Source: a virus
Reading direction: 5' to 3' (one strand)
Virus genome (UHGV): UHGV-0045723
Length of the DNA: 44,729 nucleotides
The translations under genes and the position numbers were made by a program. Below are positions 1-44,729 of this stretch, in pieces. Each line of letters starts with the position of its first letter. The first letter of the stretch is position 1. The notes beneath the pieces are model-generated. The model searched no databases, was not told the origin of the DNA, and worked only from the letters and a program-made list of their open reading frames with translations.

Positions 1-49
1 GAAACGGCTGGCTAATTCTGTACAGACTGTAATCTAAGGACGATAACGC

Positions 50-3000
50 ATGACATATCAGGCAATTTTCACTGGCTGGGATGATCTGACGATTGAAGAC
101 CTTCTGGTCGCTTACCGGAAAGCAAAAGCCGATAGCTTCTTTGAGAATACATTTCCTGTTGCTATCAAATTTGCCGAGTATGAGCAGGAATTACTTGAAA
201 ACCTGCAAAAACTCTTAGATCTTTTGCAGAGCGAAGATGGATTCAGTAGCAATAAGAAGTTGATTGGCAAATTTCGTTTGTTACCGAAAAAATTAACCAC
301 AAAGAAAAAACATGAATCCCAAAATGGACACGTCCACTTTTCTAATCCTAAACGAGCAGCCGACCATTTATTTAATAATTTTGATCTGATACCAGAGTTT
401 CGTATTATTGGTGACTTCCCGGTTGATAGTCACATTATCTCTGCACTATGGATTAACATGGTCGGGCATAAATTTGATGCCAGCTTAGATAACTGTTGCT
501 ATGGCGCGCGGCTAAAGCGTATTCGTAATGATGAATTATTTAGCAATGAGCAGGATAATCCATTCCATATCAGTGCCGTGGGTTCTTTTAGCCCCTACTT
601 CCAGCCCTACCAAAAATGGCGTGGTGATGGCTTAAAAGCTATACGTGACGAGTTGGAAAAAGATCGTGACATTATCGCCGCCTCACTGGATTTAAAAAGT
701 TACTATCATTTTATTGATCCACTGGCTATAACCTCTGATGATCTCTATAACACACTAAACATAAAACTGACTGAGGATGAAAAAGCGTTTACTGCACAGT
801 TAGCAGTATTCTTAAAGCACTGGTCTGACGGCGCAGCGGCATTTGGAAAGAAAATAGCGTACAAAACACCTGTTATTAATGGTGGTCTGGTCATTGGATT
901 AACAGCCAGTCGGATCATTTCAAATATATTGCTACACCATTGGGATAAATTAGTCATTGAAAAACTATCACCAATTCACTACGGTCGTTATGTCGATGAT
1001 ATGTTCCTTGTAATACGCGATACAGGGACAATTACTAATAATCACGAATTTATGTTATTGCTGCAAGATAGGCTTGGCAATGATTGCGTTTATTTGAAAA
1101 ACGAGCAAAAACAAATATGGCAAATACAGCAGGGCGAGCATTTCCAGGGTAAGACCACCATCCAGTTACAATCCGATAAGCAAAAACTTTTCGTGCTTCA
1201 AGGGAGGGCTGGAATAGACCTGCTCGACAGTATCGAAAAGGAGATCTACGAGCTTTCTAGTGAACACCGCTTGATGCCTTCACCGGATCAACTGGAACAC
1301 TCCACCGCAGCTAAAGTCCTTTCCGCTGCCGGTAGTGTAGGTGAAAATGCCGATACTCTGCGCCGTGCGGATGGATTAACCATTCGTCGTTTGGGCTGGT
1401 CACTGCAATTACGCTACGTTGAAACACTGGCACGAGATCTGCCTCCAAGTGAATGGAAAGAACAGCGGGAAGAGTTTTATCAGTTTGCCTACAACCATAT
1501 TCTTAGGGCTGATAATCTATTTGCACATTTTAGTTATCTGCCAAGGCTGCTTGGCTTTGCTATCAGTATGAATGAATGGCAGCACGCGGAAAAAATTGTA
1601 CTTAAAGCTTACGAATCCATCAACCTGTTGGCATCGGTGATTACTTCAGGTAAGGAAGTGAATATAAATGGTTGCAAAACTCGAGCAGTAAATGATCTTT
1701 GGCGCTGTATAAAAGGCACATTAAGCTGGCTATTTGTTGATGCAGCGACACGATATTACAGTCCTGACAGATTATTTCTTGATAAACGTTCAAAGAAAGA
1801 AGAGTGCCTTGCGGATACATTTTTTAATCATATTTCACAAAGTCTGACGAATCTAAAGGATTTACTGGATCTTCGCTTTGATTCAGCAGATTTTTATTTA
1901 AAAGCGCCATTGGTAGCTCGAGCTGATTTAGCAAAGGAACCTTATAAACAGATCGTAAAGAGTCAGTCGGCAGAAAAACTTGTTAATCAGCGTGATAGTA
2001 AAAAAGAAGTTAAAATACTGAAATTAATGAGCGACTCATCGCTTATTGATATTGACGTTATTAAGCTATTTTTGAAATCAACCAAGAATACCCGACTGGA
2101 AAAAGTGGCTAAAGGAAATCGTAAAAACGAAAGTTACCTACCTTACATTTTCCCTACACGTCCTTTAACACCCGCTGAAATATCAGAACTGGCCCCCGAA
2201 TGTGTTGGATTACCCTCCACATCCGACAAAAAACCAGATGAGAGACCGTCCACCATTTGGGCAAAATATACTCAAGCATTACGCGGAGTATGGATCAAAC
2301 CGACGTTGCTAGCATCGGAGCAGGACTCAGATGAAGCGACAAAAAAAGCTCGGCCTAAGAAATTCATTCATATTGGCACAGACAGGAAACATAAAGTTGT
2401 CGTTGCGCTAACCAGCATTAAAACAGAGGAGGACGACTGGGCTAAAATGGCCTGCAATAAATCTAACTTGTCCCGTTCAAGGTACCAGCGGATTTCTGAA
2501 CTGGTTAATGCAACATTGAAACTATCTCCTAAACCTGATTATGTTTTATTCCCTGAGCTTTCAATCCCGTTACGCTGGGTTAACAGTATTGCTGATCGTT
2601 TGAGTTCGGCGGGTATCAGTCTAATTGCGGGAACAGAATACCGCCACTTAGACGATAATCAACTGAAGAGTGAGGCCGTACTTGTCCTTTCAGATAACAG
2701 ACTCGGCTATCCAGCGAGTGTCAAAATATGGCAACCCAAGCTGGAACCCGCCGTAGGTGAAGATGAGGCATTATTTTCAACTTATGGTAAGTCTTGGGAT
2801 TCGACACTTAATGTTAAACAACGTAAGCCGGTATATATTCATCACGGCGTCAATTTTGGCGTTATGATTTGCTCTGAACTCCAGAATAGTAAAGCGAGGA
2901 TCCGTTTTCAGGGCGCACTCGATGCATTAATGGTATTGAGCTGGAATAAAGATCTAGATACGTTTGCATCGTTGATTGAATCAGCAGCGCTGGATATTCA

Positions 3001-3259
3001 TGCCTATACTATTTTAGTGAATAACCGAAAATACGGCGATAGTCGCGTACGTTCCCCGGCAAAAGAACCCTTTATGCGTGATATTGCTCGTGTGAAGGGC
3101 GGTGATAATGACTTTGTGGTCGCTGCAACGCTGGATATCGACTCGTTAAGGGCATTTCAGAGCAGGGCAAAACGCTGGCCTAAAGGCGGCGATAAATTCA
3201 AACCGTTACCTGAAGGATTCCAGTTGGCAAAGAACCGCAAAAAGCTACCGCCAAAATAA
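50..3259 (+). CDS. Defence-type (UG/Abi) reverse transcriptase fused to C-terminal nitrilase domain; DRT type 1 (UG1)-like
   Basis: 1069-aa ORF; RT motif C YVDDMF (HYGRYVDDMFLVIRD) in N-terminal half; C-terminal half has nitrilase-superfamily Glu/Lys/Cys context (VLFPELS, KIWQPK, VMICSELQ). Confidence 0.85.
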   Translation: MTYQAIFTGWDDLTIEDLLVAYRKAKADSFFENTFPVAIKFAEYEQELLENLQKLLDLLQSEDGFSSNKKLIGKFRLLPKKLTTKKKHESQNGHVHFSNPKRAADHLFNNFDLIPEFRIIGDFPVDSHIISALWINMVGHKFDASLDNCCYGARLKRIRNDELFSNEQDNPFHISAVGSFSPYFQPYQKWRGDGLKAIRDELEKDRDIIAASLDLKSYYHFIDPLAITSDDLYNTLNIKLTEDEKAFTAQLAVFLKHWSDGAAAFGKKIAYKTPVINGGLVIGLTASRIISNILLHHWDKLVIEKLSPIHYGRYVDDMFLVIRDTGTITNNHEFMLLLQDRLGNDCVYLKNEQKQIWQIQQGEHFQGKTTIQLQSDKQKLFVLQGRAGIDLLDSIEKEIYELSSEHRLMPSPDQLEHSTAAKVLSAAGSVGENADTLRRADGLTIRRLGWSLQLRYVETLARDLPPSEWKEQREEFYQFAYNHILRADNLFAHFSYLPRLLGFAISMNEWQHAEKIVLKAYESINLLASVITSGKEVNINGCKTRAVNDLWRCIKGTLSWLFVDAATRYYSPDRLFLDKRSKKEECLADTFFNHISQSLTNLKDLLDLRFDSADFYLKAPLVARADLAKEPYKQIVKSQSAEKLVNQRDSKKEVKILKLMSDSSLIDIDVIKLFLKSTKNTRLEKVAKGNRKNESYLPYIFPTRPLTPAEISELAPECVGLPSTSDKKPDERPSTIWAKYTQALRGVWIKPTLLASEQDSDEATKKARPKKFIHIGTDRKHKVVVALTSIKTEEDDWAKMACNKSNLSRSRYQRISELVNATLKLSPKPDYVLFPELSIPLRWVNSIADRLSSAGISLIAGTEYRHLDDNQLKSEAVLVLSDNRLGYPASVKIWQPKLEPAVGEDEALFSTYGKSWDSTLNVKQRKPVYIHHGVNFGVMICSELQNSKARIRFQGALDALMVLSWNKDLDTFASLIESAALDIHAYTILVNNRKYGDSRVRSPAKEPFMRDIARVKGGDNDFVVAATLDIDSLRAFQSRAKRWPKGGDKFKPLPEGFQLAKNRKKLPPK

Positions 3260-3421
3260 GAAACTGATTTTCGCTATTAATAATCAGGGTATTTTTGCGT
3301 GAGATGTCGGTAAACATGATGTAGCCCTTGCCACTCATGACCAATCGCAGTATCTTTCTCCCGCGCCTGCAAAATCAGGCGTCGGGATTAGCCTCCTGAA
3401 GAAATCTTATCGGCGACACAT

Positions 3422-3442
3422 GACGCGCCAGCGTCTTTTTTT
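3422..3442 (+). terminator. Putative rho-independent terminator downstream of RT-nitrilase gene
   Basis: GACGC-gcca-GCGTC hairpin followed by a run of 7 T. Confidence 0.4.
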
Positions 3443-3605
3443 GTGTTGTTCGCACGGTTACATCTCAATGGTGGGCCGGGCGGGGGCGGCGCAAGACGCG
3501 CCAGTGTCCGATAAGGCTGGTAAGGCTAACCCTGCCCGGTTCCACCACCCGCGAGATTAGCCTCTCCGGTGGTGGCTTGAACACCCACTTATCGGAGGTT
3601 GCCCT

Positions 3606-4076
3606 ATGGCTACAATCCTCACCACTGACAGCGATTTACTCGATCTATTGACCGTCCCCTTCAATGCCACCACGGATTTCACTGTCCTTGCTGACTACTG
3701 CGCCCGCTTTGCCGAAACCCTGATTGAAACCGACGATCCAGCGCTACGACTGGCGCTCTGCGGGCGGCTTCACGCGGCTCTTGCGCTACTGCAACCCACA
3801 CTACACGACCCCATCCCACCGCATCTTACCGAAAGCCTGACCGTGGATACCCTTCCCGCCACACCAGAGCACTTTATTTCCGAACCTGATTCCTTGTGCG
3901 AATACTGCCTCGCACTACTCCAGCTTCTGCTGGAACGTCCGGCGGAACCAAAAATGGAGCAAACCCTGACCGGGCTGCTGTGTGAGCTGGTCTGGAATTT
4001 CACGGAAGGACTCAAATCCCCGCGCTGGCTGCGTACCGCCGACGGCGTAAAATTTATCAGTGAGGTGGCCGCATGA
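3606..4076 (+). CDS. Hypothetical protein (island cargo)
   Basis: 156-aa ORF, GC-rich, no recognisable motif; an overlapping antisense ORF exists so strand is uncertain. Confidence 0.35.
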
Positions 4077-4200
4077 TGCAACAGGACTGACATTCCGCCG
4101 ACATTATTGCGGTGCTGAAAAAGCGGGGAACGCCTCTGGCGGCACAGAGAAAAACTCATTGCGGAAGCGCTGTAAATATCGCCAGAAATCATCTGGTCCT

Positions 4201-4428
4201 CAAGGTACTTTGATAGCAAAGGCAAGCTGGCTGGTTCAGTCCGGAGTCTCTCTTCTTGCACTTAAAGAGATGGGAGGATGGGAAACTCTTGAAATGGTTC
4301 GTCGTTAGGCTCACCTTTCAGCCAGGCATTTCACCGGGCACGCGAGCAAAATCGATGCGATTATAAGTCGCAATGGCACAAATACGGCACAAGAGGAGAA
4401 CGTGGTGTATTTAAATATGGGGTAACTA
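4201..4428 (+). pseudogene. Tyrosine integrase C-terminal remnant (in-frame stop)
   Basis: Translation [28 protein letters not shown]-stop-AHLS... parallels the C-terminus of the intact integrase at 43516-44679 ([37 protein letters not shown]). Confidence 0.6.
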
Positions 4429-4486
4429 CTTGATTTTAATGGTGCCGATAATAGGAGTCGAACCTACGACCTTCGCATTACGAATT
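4429..4486 (-). repeat. att-type direct repeat: 3' ~47 nt of tRNA-Thr(CGU) plus short flank
   Basis: tggtgccgataataggagtcgaacctacgaccttcgcattacgaat matches the tRNA-Thr 3' end through the anticodon and diverges at the anticodon stem; a near-identical copy starts at 44694. Confidence 0.7.
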
Positions 4487-4705
4487 ATAAGAATCCGCTT
4501 CTAATTCAAAGCATTACCCCATCAACACTGCGCTCACACGTCCCACCACATCAAAACATGTAAAGCCTTGCAAGCCATTGTGAGGCCTTATGTGTCTCAG
4601 TTTTGTCCCACTACGACCTGCACAGAAAATAAGAAAATAGCGGTGATATCAAACAGTACAGAAGTCTTTTTTCTTTCAAATGGAGAAACTGATTAACCCG
4701 TTTAA

Positions 4706-4933
4706 TTGTACTCCTCATGGGTAATCAGCAGTCCTCAGAGTAATGGAATGGCAGAAAGGTTCGTGAAAACGATGAAGGAAGTCTACATCGCGTTCATGCC
4801 GAAACCGAATGTAAGAACGGCATTGCATAATCTTGCAGTGGCGATCGAATATTACAATGAAAACCATCCGCACAGTGCGTTGGGTTATCGCTCTCCGCGA
4901 GAATATCGACGTCAGCGGGTAACGTTAACTTAA
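4706..4933 (+). mobile_element. IS3-family transposase (OrfB) C-terminal fragment
   Basis: 75-aa fragment with [14 protein letters not shown] and [17 protein letters not shown], typical of the DDE transposase C-terminus; no upstream catalytic region. Confidence 0.6.
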
Positions 4934-4974
4934 GATACACCCCCTGTCTGGAAATAAGGGGGCAAGAACAATGA

Positions 4975-5727
4975 TCAGATTCCCTGGTGAGTAAGAATTT
5001 TACTTTCTGAACTCCTCTGAGAGTATTGACTTGGAGAAACACCAAAATAACGTCTAAATACATAAGTAAAGTATGAGACACTGGCATAACCACAGACCTT
5101 AGCTACTTTACTAATAGGATAACAACGAGTGCTGAGTAAATATTCAGCCATTTGCATCCTCTCATCAAGTATGATCTTACTGAATGATACCCCCTCTTCT
5201 TTCAATTTCCTCTTTAGTAAACTTTCGCTGAGATATAATCTTGATGATATATCCTTAAGACGCCATGGTGCAGATAAATCCGTATGAATAATCGTTTTAA
5301 CTTTAGCCCCTGTGCTTTTCAAACATCCAAACAGAAATACTCCAAATTGTTTTTCAGAAGAAAATGCAGAGAGACATGTAAAAGCAATAGACTCATCAAA
5401 AATTTCTATGTATTCAGCACAGTGATTAGCCCAACTAATTAATCCTTTAATTAAACTGAAGTCAGCAAAGTTTATTTTTAAATAAGATGGATATTCCCTA
5501 CAATCAGAAATATCCCTTAAGTTATTAGCTTTCAAATAGCGACTAATAAACTCAGCGCCAAAATCCGCCACTATCACTCTTTCAGGATATGTCAGGAAAA
5601 AATCTCTAGAGCTAGAGTCGACAAGTACAGATGAACCTCTCTCCAGAAACACACTCTCTTTTCCGAAATAAACATCAAAGGACTCCAAAATCAATATAAC
5701 TGAACATGTAGTTGCCATATCATCCAC
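4975..5727 (-). CDS. AraC-family transcriptional regulator
   Basis: 250-aa ORF in AT-rich DNA; C-terminal dual HTH (ISKVAKVCGYASVSYFTYVFRRYFGVSPSQY). Confidence 0.8.
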   Translation of the reverse strand: MDDMATTCSVILILESFDVYFGKESVFLERGSSVLVDSSSRDFFLTYPERVIVADFGAEFISRYLKANNLRDISDCREYPSYLKINFADFSLIKGLISWANHCAEYIEIFDESIAFTCLSAFSSEKQFGVFLFGCLKSTGAKVKTIIHTDLSAPWRLKDISSRLYLSESLLKRKLKEEGVSFSKIILDERMQMAEYLLSTRCYPISKVAKVCGYASVSYFTYVFRRYFGVSPSQYSQRSSESKILTHQGI

Positions 5728-6300
5728 CCAATTTAACTGAAACCAGGATGAAGTATATGTATATAAAGTTCACTTTGCCAAACTTCAGTATAAAAAACCA
5801 CTAAAAATAGGGTGTGATAAAAAATACCGTAACAATAAAGCAAAGGATTATAAATTCCGTTACAGTTACAAATGATACTCAAGAAACAATTCCTTAGGAA
5901 AAACTTATTTACAGCCAATAAGTAAGACACTTATATGATATCAAGTTTTCATAAAACATAACTAGGCTAAATAGCTGCGCCTAATACCGCTACACTTTTG
6001 CCAGCCCATGTTTGCCTCCGGGTATTGACCCCTTCTCTACGCAACTTCAGTTCCCACCACCAACTTTGCGGCAGCTTTGTAGGATCAATGTCTAAAAGAA
6101 TAATGGTGACCGATAAGAAAACGACTGAATAACTGCAGATTTTCGCTCGAAACCTTCCTGTCAGATCCATAGCGAATCAAGTGCTGAATGTCACAGTATC
6201 GAACAGAAAACAGTGACGATCTAACCCTTCAAGAATATTCTACGATTGTTCTGTTTAGGAAAAGCAAGGCGGGAAGTCGGGAGATAAGTCATTGATAAAG

Positions 6301-6366
6301 TGGCGGAGAGAGGGGGATTTGAACCCCCGGTAGAGTTGCCCCTACTCCGGTTTTCGAGACCGGTCC
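6301..6366 (-). tRNA. Partial tRNA-Ser(CGA) 3' fragment (att-site remnant, not a complete gene)
   Basis: Reverse complement reads GGACCGGTCTCGAAAACCGGAGTAGGGGCAACTCTACCGGGGGTTCAAATCCCCCTCTCTCCGCCA: anticodon loop CGA, long variable arm, T-arm and CCA, but no matching 5' acceptor/D-arm. Confidence 0.6.
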
Positions 6367-6446
6367 AATCATCAAACGAAACATAAAATTAATTCACATT
6401 ATGAGGAAAAGTATCTTTTTTGTACTATGTAAATTCAAAGACTTAG

Positions 6447-7316
<870 letters not shown>

Positions 7317-7376
7317 GTCTTTAAGTGATAAGCATAAACCGCAGCACGATCTTCTTGCATACGACGTGCTACGGTT

Positions 7377-7931
7377 TCATTTATCTCCGACCGGAAACTT
7401 CTTATACAGTGTCGATATACCAACATCATAGATGATCGCCACCTTCTGGCGAGGAACGCCTGATGCAATTAATCGTCCGGCCTGCTCCCATTGTTCTGGT
7501 GTAAGTTTGGGACGACGTCCACCAATTCGTCCCTGTGCGCGAGCTGCTTCCAGTCCAGCTTTTGTTCGTTCAACAATCAGTTCACGCTCCATTTCAGCCA
7601 GGGCACCCATCACATGAAAGAAAAAGCGCCCCATTGGGGTACTGGTATCAATTGAATCCGTCAGACTACGAAAGTTGATGCCTCGTTCGCGCAACTCCTC
7701 CACCAGCACGACAAGATGCCGCATACTGCGCCCCAGTCGGTCCAGTTTCCAGACCACCAGCGTGTCACCTGCCGATAATGTCCTGAGCAGCTTTTTCAGT
7801 CCTGGTCTGTCGGACTTTGTACCGCTTATCTTGTCTTCAAAAATCAGCTCACATCCTGCACAGTTCAGCGCATTACGTTGTAGATCGGTATTCTGGTCAT
7901 TTGTTGATACACGTATATAGCCAATAAGCAT
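7377..7931 (-). CDS. Serine recombinase / DNA invertase (Gin/Cin/Pin/Hin family)
   Basis: MLIGYIRVSTNDQ catalytic-serine N-terminus, resolvase core, C-terminal HTH; adjacent to invertible tail-fibre segment. Confidence 0.9.
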   Translation of the reverse strand: MLIGYIRVSTNDQNTDLQRNALNCAGCELIFEDKISGTKSDRPGLKKLLRTLSAGDTLVVWKLDRLGRSMRHLVVLVEELRERGINFRSLTDSIDTSTPMGRFFFHVMGALAEMERELIVERTKAGLEAARAQGRIGGRRPKLTPEQWEQAGRLIASGVPRQKVAIIYDVGISTLYKKFPVGDK

Positions 7932-7985
7932 GTTAAATCCCCCTGGTAAAAGCAGGAATGATGCCATTTGCTTGTTATTTCTTCA

Positions 7986-8011
7986 TTTTCATAAACGTTG
8001 GTTTGGGAGAA
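7986..8011. repeat. Invertase crossover site (gix/cix-like), left copy
   Basis: Reverse complement ttctcccaaaccaacgtttatgaaaa; first 14 nt identical to the copy at 9813-9838, in inverted orientation. Confidence 0.7.
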
Positions 8012-8413
8012 GGCTCTGCATTACCCGTAGGTGTGCCTGTTCCGTGGCCTTCAGTCACACCGCCAACAGGTTGGCTGAAATGCAACGGTGCAGCTTTTTC
8101 TGCCGAAGAGTATCCGGAACTGGCAAAAGTTTATCCGACAAATAAATTGCCAGATTTACGCGGCGAATTCATTCGTGGGTGGGATGATGGAAGAGGAATT
8201 GATTCAGGACGGACTCTCCTGTCTGCTCAGGACGGGAGCATTGAGGCACACGGCCATGATTACAATGGGGCCATCTATACTTCTAGCGGTCCTTCCTGGG
8301 CTAATACGACGGATGCGGGACACCGGGCATATTCGGGATTTACATCATCATATGGCGGGAGTGAAACCCGTCCACGAAATATTGCATTTAACTTTATCGT
8401 GAGGGCTGCATAA
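8012..8413 (+). CDS. Alternative tail-fibre C-terminal segment (silent orientation of invertible segment)
   Basis: PVGVPVPWPSVTPPTGWLKCNGAAFSAEEYPELAKVYP...NIAFNFIVRAA resembles lambda Stf-type fibre C-termini; reading frame joins GLGE at the crossover site. Confidence 0.65.
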   Translation, partial: GSALPVGVPVPWPSVTPPTGWLKCNGAAFSAEEYPELAKVYPTNKLPDLRGEFIRGWDDGRGIDSGRTLLSAQDGSIEAHGHDYNGAIYTSSGPSWANTTDAGHRAYSGFTSSYGGSETRPRNIAFNFIVRAA

Positions 8414-9015
8414 TGGATAACGCCGTATTAAATAGCGAGCTTATTGCCACGAAGGCGGGGAATATTACCGTCTATAACTATGATGGTGAAACTCGGGAAT
8501 ATATTTCCACTTCAAATGAATATCTTGCCATTGGTGTCGGTATCCCTGCATATTCCTGTTTAGATGCCCCTGGCACACATAAGGCGGGTTATGCTATCTG
8601 CCGTTCGATGGATTTAAACTCATGGGAATATGTGCCAGACCATCGCGGTGAAATCGTTTATAGCACCGAAACAGGAGAATTGAAAGAAATCACAGGTCCG
8701 GGTGATTATCCTGAAAATACGACCACTATCGCCCCGTTAACGCCATACGATGAATGGGATGGTGAGAAATGGGTGACGGATACCGAGGCACAGCATAGCG
8801 CCGCAGTAGATGCAGCAGAAGCACAGCGCCAGTCGCTTATTGATGCTGCTATGGCTTCCATCAGTCTGATTCAACTGAAATTGCAGGCCGGACGGAAGTT
8901 GATGCAGGCAGAAACAACTCGCCTTAACGTTGTGCTGGATTATATCGACGCGGTGACGGCAACAGATACCAGCACCGCGCCGGATGTCATCTGGCCTGAA
9001 CTGCCGGAGGCGTAG
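8413..9015 (+). CDS. Tail fibre assembly protein (alternative copy)
   Basis: 200-aa ORF directly after the alternative fibre segment; C-terminal TDTSTAPDVIWPELPEA mirrors TSTAPDIEWPTPPA in the minus-strand copy. Confidence 0.7.
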   Translation: MDNAVLNSELIATKAGNITVYNYDGETREYISTSNEYLAIGVGIPAYSCLDAPGTHKAGYAICRSMDLNSWEYVPDHRGEIVYSTETGELKEITGPGDYPENTTTIAPLTPYDEWDGEKWVTDTEAQHSAAVDAAEAQRQSLIDAAMASISLIQLKLQAGRKLMQAETTRLNVVLDYIDAVTATDTSTAPDVIWPELPEA

Positions 9016-9430
9016 GCCATTCAATATCGGGGGCTGTTGAAGTATCAACACGCATCAGCAGCACACGGTATTTCTTCCATTGGGTGAGAGTTGAAGTTTC
9101 TTCATCAGTTGCAATGCCCGCATCAACAGCATCCTGACGCCAGGATATTTCACTGTCAGCTTTTGCACGAAATGTGGCTTTCATGTTTTCTGCATCTGAT
9201 ATTTTCTGTTCTGGTGAAAGCGGCGGCTCATCAACCCATGCAAGGGCCCCTGAAACCATTCCCAGCATTTTTCCTGTTGGCTTATTTCCCCCATTAAATC
9301 TGACAGCATCCTCATCGCTGATTTCAATACCATCCTGCGGCCATGTCCCCTCCTTGATATAACTTTCGTATAGCGCTGCGTTGTAGATTGCATTTTCGGA
9401 AGGGCTGTAAACACTTTTAACTTTATTCAT
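8987..9430 (-). CDS. Tail fibre assembly protein (active orientation)
   Basis: 147-aa ORF immediately downstream of the tail-fibre gene on the same strand. Confidence 0.7.
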   Translation of the reverse strand: MNKVKSVYSPSENAIYNAALYESYIKEGTWPQDGIEISDEDAVRFNGGNKPTGKMLGMVSGALAWVDEPPLSPEQKISDAENMKATFRAKADSEISWRQDAVDAGIATDEETSTLTQWKKYRVLLMRVDTSTAPDIEWPTPPAVQAR

Positions 9431-30151: not shown

Positions 30152-30303
30152 TTGTAGTTATCTCTCACCTCGCTGATACAGCAGGTGCAAATTGAGGAAA
30201 CATCATGTACCGCAAATCAGAAGCGGAAACGTCAAAGAAGCCGAGCCAATGGATAACTGCGGGATAGACTAGGCCCAACGAATCCCCAGGCCCAGAAACG
30301 ACA

Positions 30304-30325
30304 AAACCCGCTCGACGGCGGGTTT
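30304..30325 (-). terminator. Stable hairpin upstream of holin; candidate tR'-type terminator
   Basis: AAACCCGC-tcgacg-GCGGGTTT, 8-bp stem; only a weak U-tract on the minus strand. Confidence 0.3.
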
Positions 30326-30442
30326 AAGCTGTGTGGCGAAGTAACCACTCTTAACACAATACAATACTTTTTGCGTACGCGTTAGTGTTTTGATAGAATT
30401 TTCAGCCACATAAAAATTCATTCTTATAATTCGGGATATATA

Positions 30443-31618
30443 ATGGATATAACTTGTTTAGAATGTGGCAATGTTCTTGACGACCCAACTGTAGCTTGCG
30501 ATAAATGCGGTGCCACGCCTCATGTTGTAGTGCTGGGCAAACAATCGTACTTTCCTATTGGTGCTGTAACAGCAAATCTTGAAAAAAATGATTCAAGAGC
30601 ATTTGATTATCGATTAGGTGAAGTTTGGGATCTAAAAAATGAAGTCACATCTGAATTCATAACCAGAATTGAGAAAAAATTTAGCCGAAAAAACAAATTT
30701 CATAACTTCCTAGACTCAGATCACAACCCTTCATCCATTCCTACGATCCTAAAAAAATACATTAATAAAAATAATGAATTCATTGATTTATCTAGAGCTA
30801 TAATAGAGAAGCTTAAACATAATGCTAATAACGAATCGAGAGTTGCCCAACTTCAGGGGGGGAGCGTTGTTTTCATCCACTATAAGTCTACCGAACCAGA
30901 GGATTTGGGGAAACTTCTAATCGTAATGGTTGATAAACAAAGCGCCTATGACTTTGATTCGGATAAGTTGACCCCAACAAGATTAAATCCAATTAATACC
31001 GATGCCTTACGGCAGGCTGCGATGTTCGATTTAACTTTATTCGAAGCCAGTTATCCAGAAAACAAGGGTGACTCATATGTACATTTCTTGCAAGGTAAAT
31101 CTAAAAGCGATTTTTTCAAAGACTCATTAGGTTGCCGACATGATTCGGACAATAAAAGAAGCATTCAGCAATTATTCAGTGCTATAGATATTTTTGCTAG
31201 TAAAAACTCACTCGGTCGTGTACTGCGTGATACTATTGACAATGAAGTTAAATCCTTACTGGAAAAAAAATCAAAAGATAAACACGGAAATAAGTCCGTT
31301 AAGATAGAGGATATTTCAAAAATAATTGACTCATGCCTGACTGATTCACACAAATGTAAGGGAACGTTTGTCGATTTTGTTAATCTTAATGGTTTCCAGA
31401 TTGACCCTCAATTTGAACCAACTCCTAAAGCAGCTGAAAGCGCGCTTACAATTGAAGTGGCAGATAACGACAATAATTTTAAGTTGAAAATAATGCGTGG
31501 AGCTATTGGAGACGAAAAGTCAAATAAGCCTGTAATTCTCACTGACAACAAATGCGAAATTGTGATAAAATTGAGTCAGGCAAATTATGATGAACTCAAA
31601 AGATATAGAGACAGCTAA
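30443..31618 (+). CDS. Zinc-ribbon protein with NdpA/YejK-like (NA37) nucleoid-associated domain; candidate defence gene A
   Basis: 391-aa ORF in AT-rich DNA; N-terminal CLECG-x12-CDKCG; central GGSVVFIHY, LLIVMVDK, YVHFLQGKSKSDFFKDSLG resemble E. coli YejK as I remember it. Confidence 0.7.
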   Translation: MDITCLECGNVLDDPTVACDKCGATPHVVVLGKQSYFPIGAVTANLEKNDSRAFDYRLGEVWDLKNEVTSEFITRIEKKFSRKNKFHNFLDSDHNPSSIPTILKKYINKNNEFIDLSRAIIEKLKHNANNESRVAQLQGGSVVFIHYKSTEPEDLGKLLIVMVDKQSAYDFDSDKLTPTRLNPINTDALRQAAMFDLTLFEASYPENKGDSYVHFLQGKSKSDFFKDSLGCRHDSDNKRSIQQLFSAIDIFASKNSLGRVLRDTIDNEVKSLLEKKSKDKHGNKSVKIEDISKIIDSCLTDSHKCKGTFVDFVNLNGFQIDPQFEPTPKAAESALTIEVADNDNNFKLKIMRGAIGDEKSNKPVILTDNKCEIVIKLSQANYDELKRYRDS

Positions 31619-31620
31619 TA

Positions 31621-32835
31621 ATGACAATTGCTGATGACTTATCAAGATTAGCGCAGATTATTAACGGAGCCTCAAGCAGAGTTGAGGGCTACTACACTGT
31701 CATAAGTCTTGAAGAAAGCATTGTTATTGTAAATAGTTCTGAAATAATTAGACTGTTACAATCTATAGGTTATAAAAAGGCAACAACCTGCATCGAAAAT
31801 AATGAAATTTGGCTAGATCGCCAAGCTTCATCTTGGGATGACGCTATAATTTATGAGAATGTTGAGTCTTTTTGGTCTAGAGTAAACACCCAAAACGCTC
31901 TTCCGAAAAATTATATCATCGGAACGCCGTTAATACTCCCTACTTCTAAGAATGAAAGCATCGAAAAAATCCATATTTTCTTTATGTGGAAAGATATCCT
32001 TTCATTAATTGCTGATCATCATAACAGTGACTGCTCTGTCTTATTTTTCACCAATGAAGACAAAAGTTATACAGTCGAACTCACGCATTTTTTACAATAT
32101 AGCGAGATTAATCGCTTATCGAACTCGTCTCTTAAATATGAAATTATAAAGGAGCTTCTCGACACAATAAAAATCAATGATTTACACAAAAGCGAGCGCA
32201 AGCTCGTTATACGCTCAGCCATAAACGAAGTATTTAAAGCAAATGGTACGTTCAATTTCTTTGACTTGCTTAACTCTACTGAACTCGTCAGGAAAAAATA
32301 TGATGAACTATATGAGATTTACACAAAGAGGTTTTCTGTAAATAAAATTCTTAACGAACTCGATGAGAAAAATCTTGAGTTCACGAGTAAAATTAACGAA
32401 TTCATATCATCTAATCAGACAAAAGCATTGACTATTCCCGGTGCATTAATAGCAGCTGGTGGCTTAGTGAAGGCTAATGAAACAACCGAAGCAATATTGA
32501 TTATCGCAGGACTTTGGATGATAAAAAAAGTCAATTACATTTCTATTGAGATATTCAATGAAACATTCGACAACTTACGTTCTCGAGTGGAGTCCGCTTT
32601 CGATAAGTATTTAAAGTTTGAAGAAAATAAAGAAATCAAAGATAATGCAGATAGTATTAAGAGTAGCATTACAGGTTTGATTGATAAAGCTAAAAAAAGG
32701 ATGAGAACTGTTAAATATCTCGCATCAGCCATGTTTTATGGAGGCCTTATTTACGTTGGATATAAACAGTTCCCAGTCTTTTTTGAAAAATCGGCAGTAA
32801 ATCTATTTTATTTTTTATGCCATACTATAAGCTAA
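31621..32835 (+). CDS. Membrane protein with helical N-terminal domain; candidate defence gene B
   Basis: 404-aa ORF starting 2 nt after gene A stop; hydrophobic helices ALTIPGALIAAGGLV...ILIIAGLWMI and YLASAMFYGGLIYVGY. Confidence 0.7.
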   Translation: MTIADDLSRLAQIINGASSRVEGYYTVISLEESIVIVNSSEIIRLLQSIGYKKATTCIENNEIWLDRQASSWDDAIIYENVESFWSRVNTQNALPKNYIIGTPLILPTSKNESIEKIHIFFMWKDILSLIADHHNSDCSVLFFTNEDKSYTVELTHFLQYSEINRLSNSSLKYEIIKELLDTIKINDLHKSERKLVIRSAINEVFKANGTFNFFDLLNSTELVRKKYDELYEIYTKRFSVNKILNELDEKNLEFTSKINEFISSNQTKALTIPGALIAAGGLVKANETTEAILIIAGLWMIKKVNYISIEIFNETFDNLRSRVESAFDKYLKFEENKEIKDNADSIKSSITGLIDKAKKRMRTVKYLASAMFYGGLIYVGYKQFPVFFEKSAVNLFYFLCHTIS

Positions 32836-43639: not shown

Positions 43640-44679
43640 AGGCTGAAGCATGGCGGGTCAGCAAACTTGGTGAAATACCTGATATAACGTTCGAGGAAGC
43701 GTGTGTCAGGTGGCTTGAAGAGAAAGCACATAAAAAATCACTGGACGATGACAAAAGCCGGATCGGATTCTGGCTTCAACATTTCGCAGGAATGCAACTA
43801 AGAGACATTACTGAATCAAAAATTTATTCAGCAATGCAGAAAATGACGAACCGGCGTCATGAGGAAAACTGGAAACTCAGGGCAGAAGCATGCAGAAAAA
43901 AAGGGAAACCTGTTCCAGAATACACGCCAAAACCAGCGTCCGTTGCAACGAAGGCTACGCATCTTTCATTTATAAAGGCCCTACTAAGAGCCGCAGAGCG
44001 TGAATGGAAAATGCTGGATAAGGCACCAATTATTAAAGTGCCTCAACCAAAGAATAAACGGATCCGCTGGCTGGAGCCTCATGAAGCACAAAGGCTGATT
44101 GATGAATGTCCGGAGCCATTAAAGTCTGTTGTTGAATTTGCACTGGCAACAGGCTTAAGACGCTCGAACATCATCAACCTTGAATGGCAACAAATAGATA
44201 TGCAGCGCCGGGTGGCATGGATAAACCCGGAAGAGAGTAAATCAAACCGCGCAATTGGCGTTGCGCTGAATGATACTGCATGTCGCGTATTGAAAAAACA
44301 AATCGGGAATCATCACCGTTGGGTATTTGTGTACAAGGAAAGCTGTACCAAACCAGACGGAACGAAAGCGCCAACAGTCAGGAAGATGCGGTATGACGCA
44401 AACACAGCCTGGAAAGCGGCGCTGAGACGAGCTGGTATTGATGATTTCAGATTTCATGACTTGAGACACACCTGGGCAAGTTGGCTGGTTCAAGCCGGTG
44501 TCCCGTTGTCAGTGTTACAGGAAATGGGAGGCTGGGAGTCTATCGAAATGGTTCGTCGATATGCTCACCTCGCACCTAATCACCTTACCGAACACGCACG
44601 GCAAATAGACTCGATCCTGAACCCATCGGTCCCAAATTTGTCCCAGTCAAAAAATAAGGAAGGTACTAATGATGTGTAA
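43516..44679 (+). CDS. int: Tyrosine integrase
   Basis: 387-aa ORF with C-terminal [40 protein letters not shown]; ends 14 nt from the tRNA. Confidence 0.9.
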
Positions 44680-44693
44680 CTTATTGATTTAAA

Positions 44694-44729
44694 TGGTGCC
44701 GATAATAGGAGTCGAACCTACGACCTTCG
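44694..44729 (-). tRNA. thrW: tRNA-Thr(CGU) 3' end, truncated by window edge
   Basis: tggtgccgataataggagtcgaacctacgaccttcg is the reverse complement of the tRNA-Thr T-arm/acceptor end with CCA. Confidence 0.7.

Follow-up and report, generated by a model that had tools for sequence, protein, structure and literature searches.

The gene at positions 50 to 3,259 of UHGV-0045723, a virus genome of 44,729 nucleotides (nt) that is called the window below, encodes a reverse transcriptase (RT) fused to a nitrilase, and it is best explained as a stand-alone defence RT-nitrilase of the UG5-large family with a mechanism like those of DRT11 and DRT1. We give this joint explanation a probability of about 0.8. 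The gene belongs to that family, has intact catalytic residues, is under purifying selection, forms a single-gene unit, lies in a defence island and has neither a partner gene nor a non-coding RNA (ncRNA); its mechanism would follow those of its characterised relatives. An earlier note on this DNA had described it as a single open reading frame (ORF) of 1069 amino acids (aa) encoding a DRT1-like RT-nitrilase fusion. The ORF listing agrees on the ORF (exactly one, with an ATG start, on the + strand), and the reading as a UG/Abi-type defence RT of a known family, fused to a nitrilase, also holds. The profile scores do not group the RT with RTs outside the UG families and the alignment does not reveal a degenerate nitrilase triad, so that the family label alone changes. 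The type of system is already known and recently validated, and the gene reveals no new kind of system.

Family assignment and catalytic residues

Family placement of the 1069-aa protein was based on PADLOC profile scores, with PADLOC taken as decisive. In this search against UG/Abi RT and nitrilase models, which the earlier note had proposed as a check, RT_UG5-nitrilase (PDLC03780) matched with 1034 bits (E=0; aa 1-1068 against profile positions 9-901 of 907), and the next-best PADLOC family reached at most 188 bits. The stand-alone RTasNitrilase model gave 147 bits over aa 783-1058. Pfam found no domain in the protein and NCBIfam gave only weak matches to the RT core, and it is for this reason that the RefSeq label of the gene is 'hypothetical protein' or 'RNA-directed DNA polymerase', as expected from the remark in the earlier note that it is easily left as hypothetical.

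The catalytic residues were examined in an alignment of 67 diverse relatives with 24-72% identity, from which all conservation counts given here are taken. The motifs that had been picked out before lie at aa 314-319 (YVDDMF, in the N-terminal half), 834-838 (FPELS), 892-897 (KIWQPK) and 939-945 (MICSELQ). YVDD is present in 67 of the 67 relatives, and the proposed Glu/Lys/Cys context of the nitrilase is borne out by E836, K897 and C941, each of them invariant, whereas position 943 is E in 52 relatives and D in 15. All of these residues have counterparts in DRT11 (Table 1).

DRT11 is a UG5-large RT-nitrilase from the plasmid pSymA of Sinorhizobium meliloti RMO17 (WP_040120558.1; PMC13436386, 2026). 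It guards against rhizosphere phages in a manner dependent on the multiplicity of infection, needs only its RT and nitrilase, without an ncRNA or a transmembrane (TM) partner, and loses defence with either DD296-297AA or C876A (PMC13436386). Our protein matched the DRT11 gene on pSymA by tblastn with 29.8% identity over 99% of the query (E=8e-121), and blastp gave one collinear high-scoring segment pair of 449 bits (residues 13-1067 against 2-999). The two proteins have the same domain order, agree residue for residue in their catalytic sites, and are both single-gene systems with no TM partner and no ncRNA. DRT11 is encoded in a variable defence region beside an AbiEii gene (PMC13436386), and the Escherichia coli gene is also near AbiEii. 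They differ in length (1005 aa in DRT11) and in setting, which is an alphaproteobacterial megaplasmid for DRT11 and a gammaproteobacterial chromosomal tRNA island here.

A second UG5-large relative, the RT-nitrilase of E. coli E101, sits together with a protein with one TM segment (1TM) on a P4-like satellite hotspot (Rousset et al. 2022, PMC9122126), and is the same protein as 'DRT5L' of Neville et al. 2026 (PMC13275509). It resembles our protein in family, host species and carriage on a mobile element, and in being an RT-nitrilase fusion with an S-S motif and a C-terminal P-P-G-F tail. It differs in its length of 947 aa and in its dependence on a 1-TM protein of 229 aa, encoded downstream, for which the window contains no homologue, and the two align with 26-29% identity in two separate segments (83+73 bits). 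UG5-small (cluster 249, 'DRT5S') has a related RT domain (67 bits) including the invariant S-S-x motif, but there the nitrilase is a separate gene, whereas it is fused here. These comparisons make the 1069-aa protein kin of S. meliloti DRT11 and E. coli E101 DRT5L, and a distant cousin of DRT1/UG1.

An AlphaFold2 model was built from a shallow alignment of 41 homologues with at least 69% identity, and was used for domain-level fold matches only. With this low-confidence model, Foldseek matched the RT half to RTs of diversity-generating retroelements (DGR), DRT2, UG15, DRT9, AbiA/AbiK, DRT4 and DRT6, and the nitrilase half to the nitrilase filament 8UXU, cyanide dihydratases, Lnt and formamidase, which gives independent support for both folds. 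The region between the domains is modelled as largely helical; a comparable helical extension is common to class 3 RTs (PMC9226505). The GC content of the gene is 0.40-0.42, against about 0.55 in the adjoining prophage.

Table 1. Coordinates in the window of the RT-nitrilase gene, its domains and key residues, and the features that define its island
Feature	Position	Strand	Basis
UG5-large (class 3 UG/Abi, DRT11-type) RT-nitrilase gene, intact	50..3259	+	1069 aa; ORF, PADLOC and DRT11 homology
Likely Shine-Dalgarno sequence AAGGA, 9 nt 5' of the ATG	37..41	+	Read from the sequence; putative function
RT domain, about aa 124-410	419..1279	+	PADLOC UG/DRT RT models, PDB profile match, Foldseek
RT active-site motif YVDD, aa 314-317	989..1000	+	67/67 relatives; aligns with DRT11 YVDD 294-297
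Segment predicted flexible or of low confidence, 3' of the RT domain, aa 398-465	1241..1444	+	Model pLDDT <50
Codon of S404, candidate priming serine	1259..1261	+	67/67 relatives; motif S/A/T-S-E-x-R-x-M/L-P
Alpha-helical linker between RT and nitrilase domains, about aa 466-782	1445..2395	+	Model largely helical
Segment matching nitrilase models, aa 783-1058	2396..3223	+	PADLOC RTasNitrilase, 147 bits; Foldseek nitrilase-fold matches
Nitrilase catalytic Glu, E836	2555..2557	+	67/67 relatives; aligns with DRT11 E772
Nitrilase catalytic Lys, K897 (second K of KIWQPK)	2738..2740	+	67/67 relatives; aligns with DRT11 K833
Nitrilase catalytic Cys, C941, and second acidic residue, E943 (C-S-E)	2870..2878	+	C941 in 67/67 relatives; aligns with DRT11 C876/E878
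C-terminal motif F-K-P-L-P-E-G-F, aa 1050-1057, candidate domain-swapped active-site lid	3197..3220	+	Conservation and HMMER alignment to DRT1
C-terminal remnant of the island's tyrosine integrase (pseudogene)	4222..4425	+	RefSeq annotation
46-nt copy of the thrW 3' end, left copy of the duplication	4440..4485	-	Identical to VCSW5 thrW through 4485, then diverges
Start of intact thrW, cut by the window end; direct-repeat partner of the 4440-4485 copy	44694..44729	-	

Distribution, selection and genomic neighbours

Of 5,426 complete E. coli genomes, 261 (approximately 5%) carry the gene, with at least 99% identity in all but one; enteroaggregative E. coli 042 is among the carriers. The ORF is intact in 260 of these 261 carriers, and an insertion sequence (IS) interrupts the remaining one. 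The protein cluster contains 1122 member sequences, the exact sequence occurs on 560 contigs, and relatives of about 70% identity are distributed across Gammaproteobacteria and beyond. Carriage by a phage or satellite was rejected, as no homologue was found in 50,697 phage records. Comparison with the Salmonella and Citrobacter orthologues gave ratios of non-synonymous to synonymous substitution rates (dN/dS) of 0.03-0.06, with dS saturated. The gene is under strong purifying selection and is selectively maintained.

Plasmid carriage was considered and rejected, as the only E. coli matches labelled as plasmids were a 64-kb frameshifted chromosomal duplicate and a 35-kb contig, both treated as assembly artefacts. 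The former, NZ_CP146678.1 ('plasmid unnamed3' of strain MS 69-1, 64,057 bp), duplicates the chromosomal ykgR-ecp-pao-AbiE-RT-prophage region with frameshifts in many genes, and probably reflects an error of assembly or in-situ replication of the prophage rather than a plasmid. The latter, CP088862.1, ends in the RT-nitrilase gene.

In Salmonella, Yersinia and Citrobacter, 76%-identical orthologues close a compact hsdR-hsdM-hsdS-kwaA-kwaB-RT array beside an integrase, and a spacer of only 12 nt separates the RT gene from kwaB. At the nucleotide level, the E. coli and Salmonella loci are homologous only from about -60 of the ATG (just before window position 1) to the stop codon, and the last approximately 50 nt of kwaB together with the 12-nt spacer are still discernible 5' of the E. 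coli gene. This kwaB remnant marks a recombination junction. Because the homology is limited to the interval from -60 to the stop codon, the transferable unit is a single gene, which moves as a single-gene module between defence islands. Kiwa was rejected as a candidate partner, since kwaA and kwaB are scored as a known system in their own right and most other loci lack them.

No neighbour gene family was conserved across the loci of 80 relatives from many phyla, among which the recurrent neighbours were type I restriction-modification genes (11 loci) and BREX genes (about 9-10 loci). In about nine distant relatives (about 30% identity), the UG5-large gene lies within BREX arrays with PglZ-, PglX- and BrxC-like neighbours, often with start/stop overlaps of 3-4 nt, which suggests that the RT-nitrilase is operonically embedded in the BREX loci of these relatives.

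The alternative that survives best, although we consider it unlikely, is that the E. coli gene is an orphaned, non-functional UG5-large gene that has lost its partner (e.g. the E101-type 1-TM protein) and is mere cargo of a decaying island. The dependence of the E101 system on its TM protein speaks for this idea, as do the decay of the island (an integrase pseudogene and no distal attachment (att) site), the excision of the gene from the hsdRMS-kwaAB array seen in other enterobacteria, and the failure to find a clear promoter. A gene without function is difficult to reconcile with the dN/dS values and with the intact ORF in 260 of the 261 carriers. Moreover, the protein is much nearer to the self-sufficient DRT11, which has no TM partner, than to E101 DRT5L, and a TM partner is not a regular companion of such genes. 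By tblastn, the E101-type TM protein had no match in the window or in any of the 80 related loci; in the window no TM ORF adjoins the gene; and by a crude hydropathy test an adjacent ORF with at least two predicted TM segments was seen in only 3 of the 80 loci, the other 77 having no adjoining multi-TM ORF. In the survey of Mestre et al. (PMC9226505), a TM gene is found downstream only 'sometimes', in 31 of 299 UG5-large members. In the upstream intergenic region there was also no sign of an ncRNA, with no Rfam match and no unusual fold (z = -0.22).

A composite system with the divergent AbiEi/AbiEii pair is very improbable. In every E. coli carrier examined, this pair is encoded on the opposite strand, 315 bp upstream of the RT gene, and an AbiEii-like gene also adjoins DRT11. 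However, phmmer searches with both AbiE proteins found matches within +/-8 kb of the RT gene in 0 of the 80 relatives, the enterobacterial orthologues have hsdRMS-Kiwa upstream instead, and AbiE is a self-contained type IV toxin-antitoxin system.

Relationship to DRT1 and to other reverse transcriptases

The earlier note took the RT-nitrilase architecture as defining DRT type 1 (UG1). According to Mestre et al. (PMC9226505), UG1, UG5 and UG29 all bear a C-terminal CN-hydrolase, and UG5-large has the same architecture as UG1, whose members are 1200-1300 aa long. As UG1, UG5-large and UG29 are all RT-nitrilase fusions, this architecture does not define DRT1, and the fusion with a C-terminal lid motif, present in our protein, is common to UG1 and UG5-large and so does not discriminate between them.

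We consider it very improbable that the gene is itself a DRT type 1 (UG1) gene acting exactly like the DRT1 of structure 9YFD (PMC13275509). Both proteins are class 3 fusions in the order RT, helical region and C-terminal nitrilase, and both have a C-terminal K..P-x-G-F motif (K-x-x-P-x-G-F in the lid of DRT1) and, after the RT domain, a Ser-containing loop at a similar position, predicted to be flexible in our protein; 9YFD is also the nearest solved structure by sequence, and DRT1 needs both of its active sites. Membership in DRT1 is nevertheless refuted by the profile scores, since Drt1a (PDLC03745) gave only 89 bits, confined to the RT core (aa 151-409), against the 1034 bits of UG5-nitrilase, and PDLC02171 gave 34 bits. 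The 9YFD protein aligns only at the RT palm and the C-terminal half of the nitrilase (30 bits as a single sequence, 59 bits as a profile, and 42+31 bits by blastp, against 449 bits for DRT11). The length of 1069 aa is outside the range of UG1 (DRT1 itself has 1229 aa), and UG5 RTs form a clade apart from UG1 (Mestre et al., PMC9226505; Rousset et al., PMC9122126). The DRT1-like label therefore has to be replaced by UG5-large.

It is hardly credible that the gene encodes an RT with no role in defence (retron, group II intron or DGR) or a nitrilase fusion with a housekeeping function, because the weak similarity of its RT core to retron and other RT models does not exceed 32 bits and covers the palm motif only, Rfam finds no msr/msd, intron or DGR RNA (window 1-9000 and upstream), and the context consistently consists of defence islands.

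A possible mechanism

Neville et al. (PMC13275509) reported that DRT1, DRT5S and DRT5L synthesise template-free DNA from deoxynucleoside triphosphates, with the product covalently bound to the protein. In DRT1, synthesis is primed on S402, within the unresolved loop 382-478, and the attached DNA causes nitrilase-mediated tetramers to assemble into dormant filaments. The C-terminal tail is domain-swapped and seals the nitrilase site, and K1219A, A1223F and C-terminal deletions inactivate the system. T4 Dda helicase is needed for the activity, and the outcome is abortive infection (all PMC13275509).

From these characterised relatives we infer a scheme for our protein, including the DNA priming, the priming residue, the lid, the phage trigger and abortive infection. 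The RT domain would synthesise short stretches of single-stranded DNA, template-independent and protein-primed, which remain covalently bound to the enzyme, with S404 as the candidate attachment site. The attached DNA would promote oligomerisation through the nitrilase, giving a complex that is poised but auto-inhibited. In this complex the conserved K-P-x-P-x-G-F tail at the C-terminus of one subunit may close the nitrilase active site of its neighbour. A cue from the replication stage of the phage would then release the nitrilase to act on an essential metabolite, resulting in abortive infection. Neither an ncRNA nor a partner protein would be needed.

Two elements of this scheme can be traced in the alignments. 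The tail, F1050-K-P-L-P-E-G-F1057, is strongly conserved among the relatives (K1051 in 66/67, P1052 in 65/67, P1054 in 66/67 and G1056 in 63/67), and HMMER sets it against K1219-T-Q-P-A-G-F1225 of DRT1, with K1051 on the essential K1219. S404 is found in all 67 relatives inside the otherwise variable, low-confidence stretch of aa 398-465, which appears to be the positional counterpart of the DRT1 loop 382-478. The S-S pair is also present in E101 DRT5L and UG5-small DRT5S, and MAFFT places T401-S402 of DRT1 on the columns of S403-S404, while the hidden Markov model (HMM) alignment ends earlier, at DRT1 residue 366. S404 is thus named as a candidate priming residue from its sequence conservation, and its equivalence to DRT1 S402 is positional and unproven. 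A common mechanism of UG1, UG5-large and UG5-small, comprising a priming serine in the loop (S404 corresponding to DRT1 S402) and a K-P-x-P-x-G-F lid that gates the nitrilase, is a tentative proposal to which we give somewhat less than even odds. If it is true, the E. coli clade is a natural minimal, partner-free version of this mechanism, with about 70% conservation throughout Gammaproteobacteria, and would be suitable as a model in its native host.

Several points weigh against the stand-alone UG5-large reading with a DRT11-/DRT1-like mechanism. Identity is only about 30% to DRT11 and about 27% to DRT5L. The E101 system, the only E. coli UG5-large system tested, was reported to depend on the TM protein encoded downstream and was active at room temperature only (PMC9226505, PMC9122126). 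Upstream of our gene a convincing sigma-70 promoter was not found. With regard to the mechanism, a DRT1-like quaternary arrangement is carried over by analogy, and the AlphaFold2 model is poor (predicted local distance difference test score, pLDDT, 60; predicted template modelling score, pTM, 0.53). Neville et al. (PMC13275509) stated that conservation of S402 does not extend to other class 3 DRTs, and the HMM profile alignment does not reach the S402 site.

The thrW island and the neighbouring prophage

In prophage-free strains such as VCSW5, the order of features is the ykgR remnant, AbiEii and AbiEi (-), RT-nitrilase (+), 'ash', a 156-aa ORF, the C-terminal remnant of an integrase, thrW and proA. 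The RT-nitrilase gene is on a decayed integrative island at the tRNA-Thr gene thrW, and the integrase pseudogene beside the prophage that the earlier note had reported was confirmed. Its stop codon falls exactly at the position of the catalytic Tyr (VRR*AHL, compared with VRRYAHL in the intact prophage integrase at about 44540-44570).

The partial att repeat that the earlier note assigned to the element carrying the RT gene is real and not due to chance (two exact 36-nt copies of the thrW repeat in the window, against 0 expected), but it is not the att site of the RT island itself. The two thrW copies bracket a remnant segment (4486 to about 7350) together with the approximately 37-kb prophage, which has its own integrase, and in strains that lack this insert, an intact thrW occupies the position of the repeat. 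No copy of the thrW repeat was found on the far (ykgR) side of the island. The repeat therefore marks a later insertion at thrW and not the ends of the RT island. ARAGORN detected no tRNA in the window, as thrW is truncated by the window end.

Just upstream of window position 1 lies the intact AbiEi/AbiEii type IV toxin-antitoxin pair, divergent from the RT gene. In every E. coli carrier examined, the AbiE pair and the RT gene make up a small defence island of two systems.

Directly 3' of the RT gene, Rfam gave full-length matches to isrK (3363-3441, +; 68.8 bits) and C4 antisense RNA (3464-3552, +; 65.7 bits), and a match near threshold to the a1/b1 C4 target (3350-3402, +). This set looks like a P1/P7-type immunity RNA cassette; the isrK/C4 cassette does not accompany the RT gene in Salmonella. 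The RefSeq coding sequence for an 'ash family protein' (3396-3560) overlaps the isrK/C4 RNAs and may be a mis-call. The 156-aa ORF at 3606-4076 had no Pfam, PHROG or PADLOC match.

The remnant segment 4486-7350 contains a fragment of an IS3-family integrase core (4706-4933), an AraC-family regulator (4975-5727, -; GC 0.34) and a LEM-3-like GIY-YIG protein (6543-7316; phrog_5356, 477 bits). At about 7377-9100, the segment with the genes for tail fibre and tail-fibre assembly, next to the PinE invertase, has opposite orientations in the RefSeq records of the MS 69-1 chromosome and 'plasmid unnamed3', suggesting active Pin-mediated inversion in the sequenced MS 69-1 population. Further into the prophage, a block of low GC content (0.35) at about 30300-32800, between the lysis genes and the Q antiterminator, carries genes for a 'nucleoid-associated protein' and for a hypothetical protein of 404 aa that run opposite to the surrounding phage genes. 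It resembles a moron and could be further defence or exclusion cargo.

Implications

The interest of the gene rests on the correction of its annotation, on the candidate priming serine and on the lid motif that it has in common with DRT1. About 5% of complete E. coli genomes carry an intact UG5-large RT under the label 'hypothetical protein' or 'RNA-directed DNA polymerase', and defence RTs of this family were first validated in 2022 and 2026. As a partner-free copy in a tractable native host, from a clade that is unusually conserved, with roughly 70% identity among Gammaproteobacteria, the gene is a convenient model of class 3 DRTs, suited to the questions of the nitrilase substrate, the priming residue and the phage cue.

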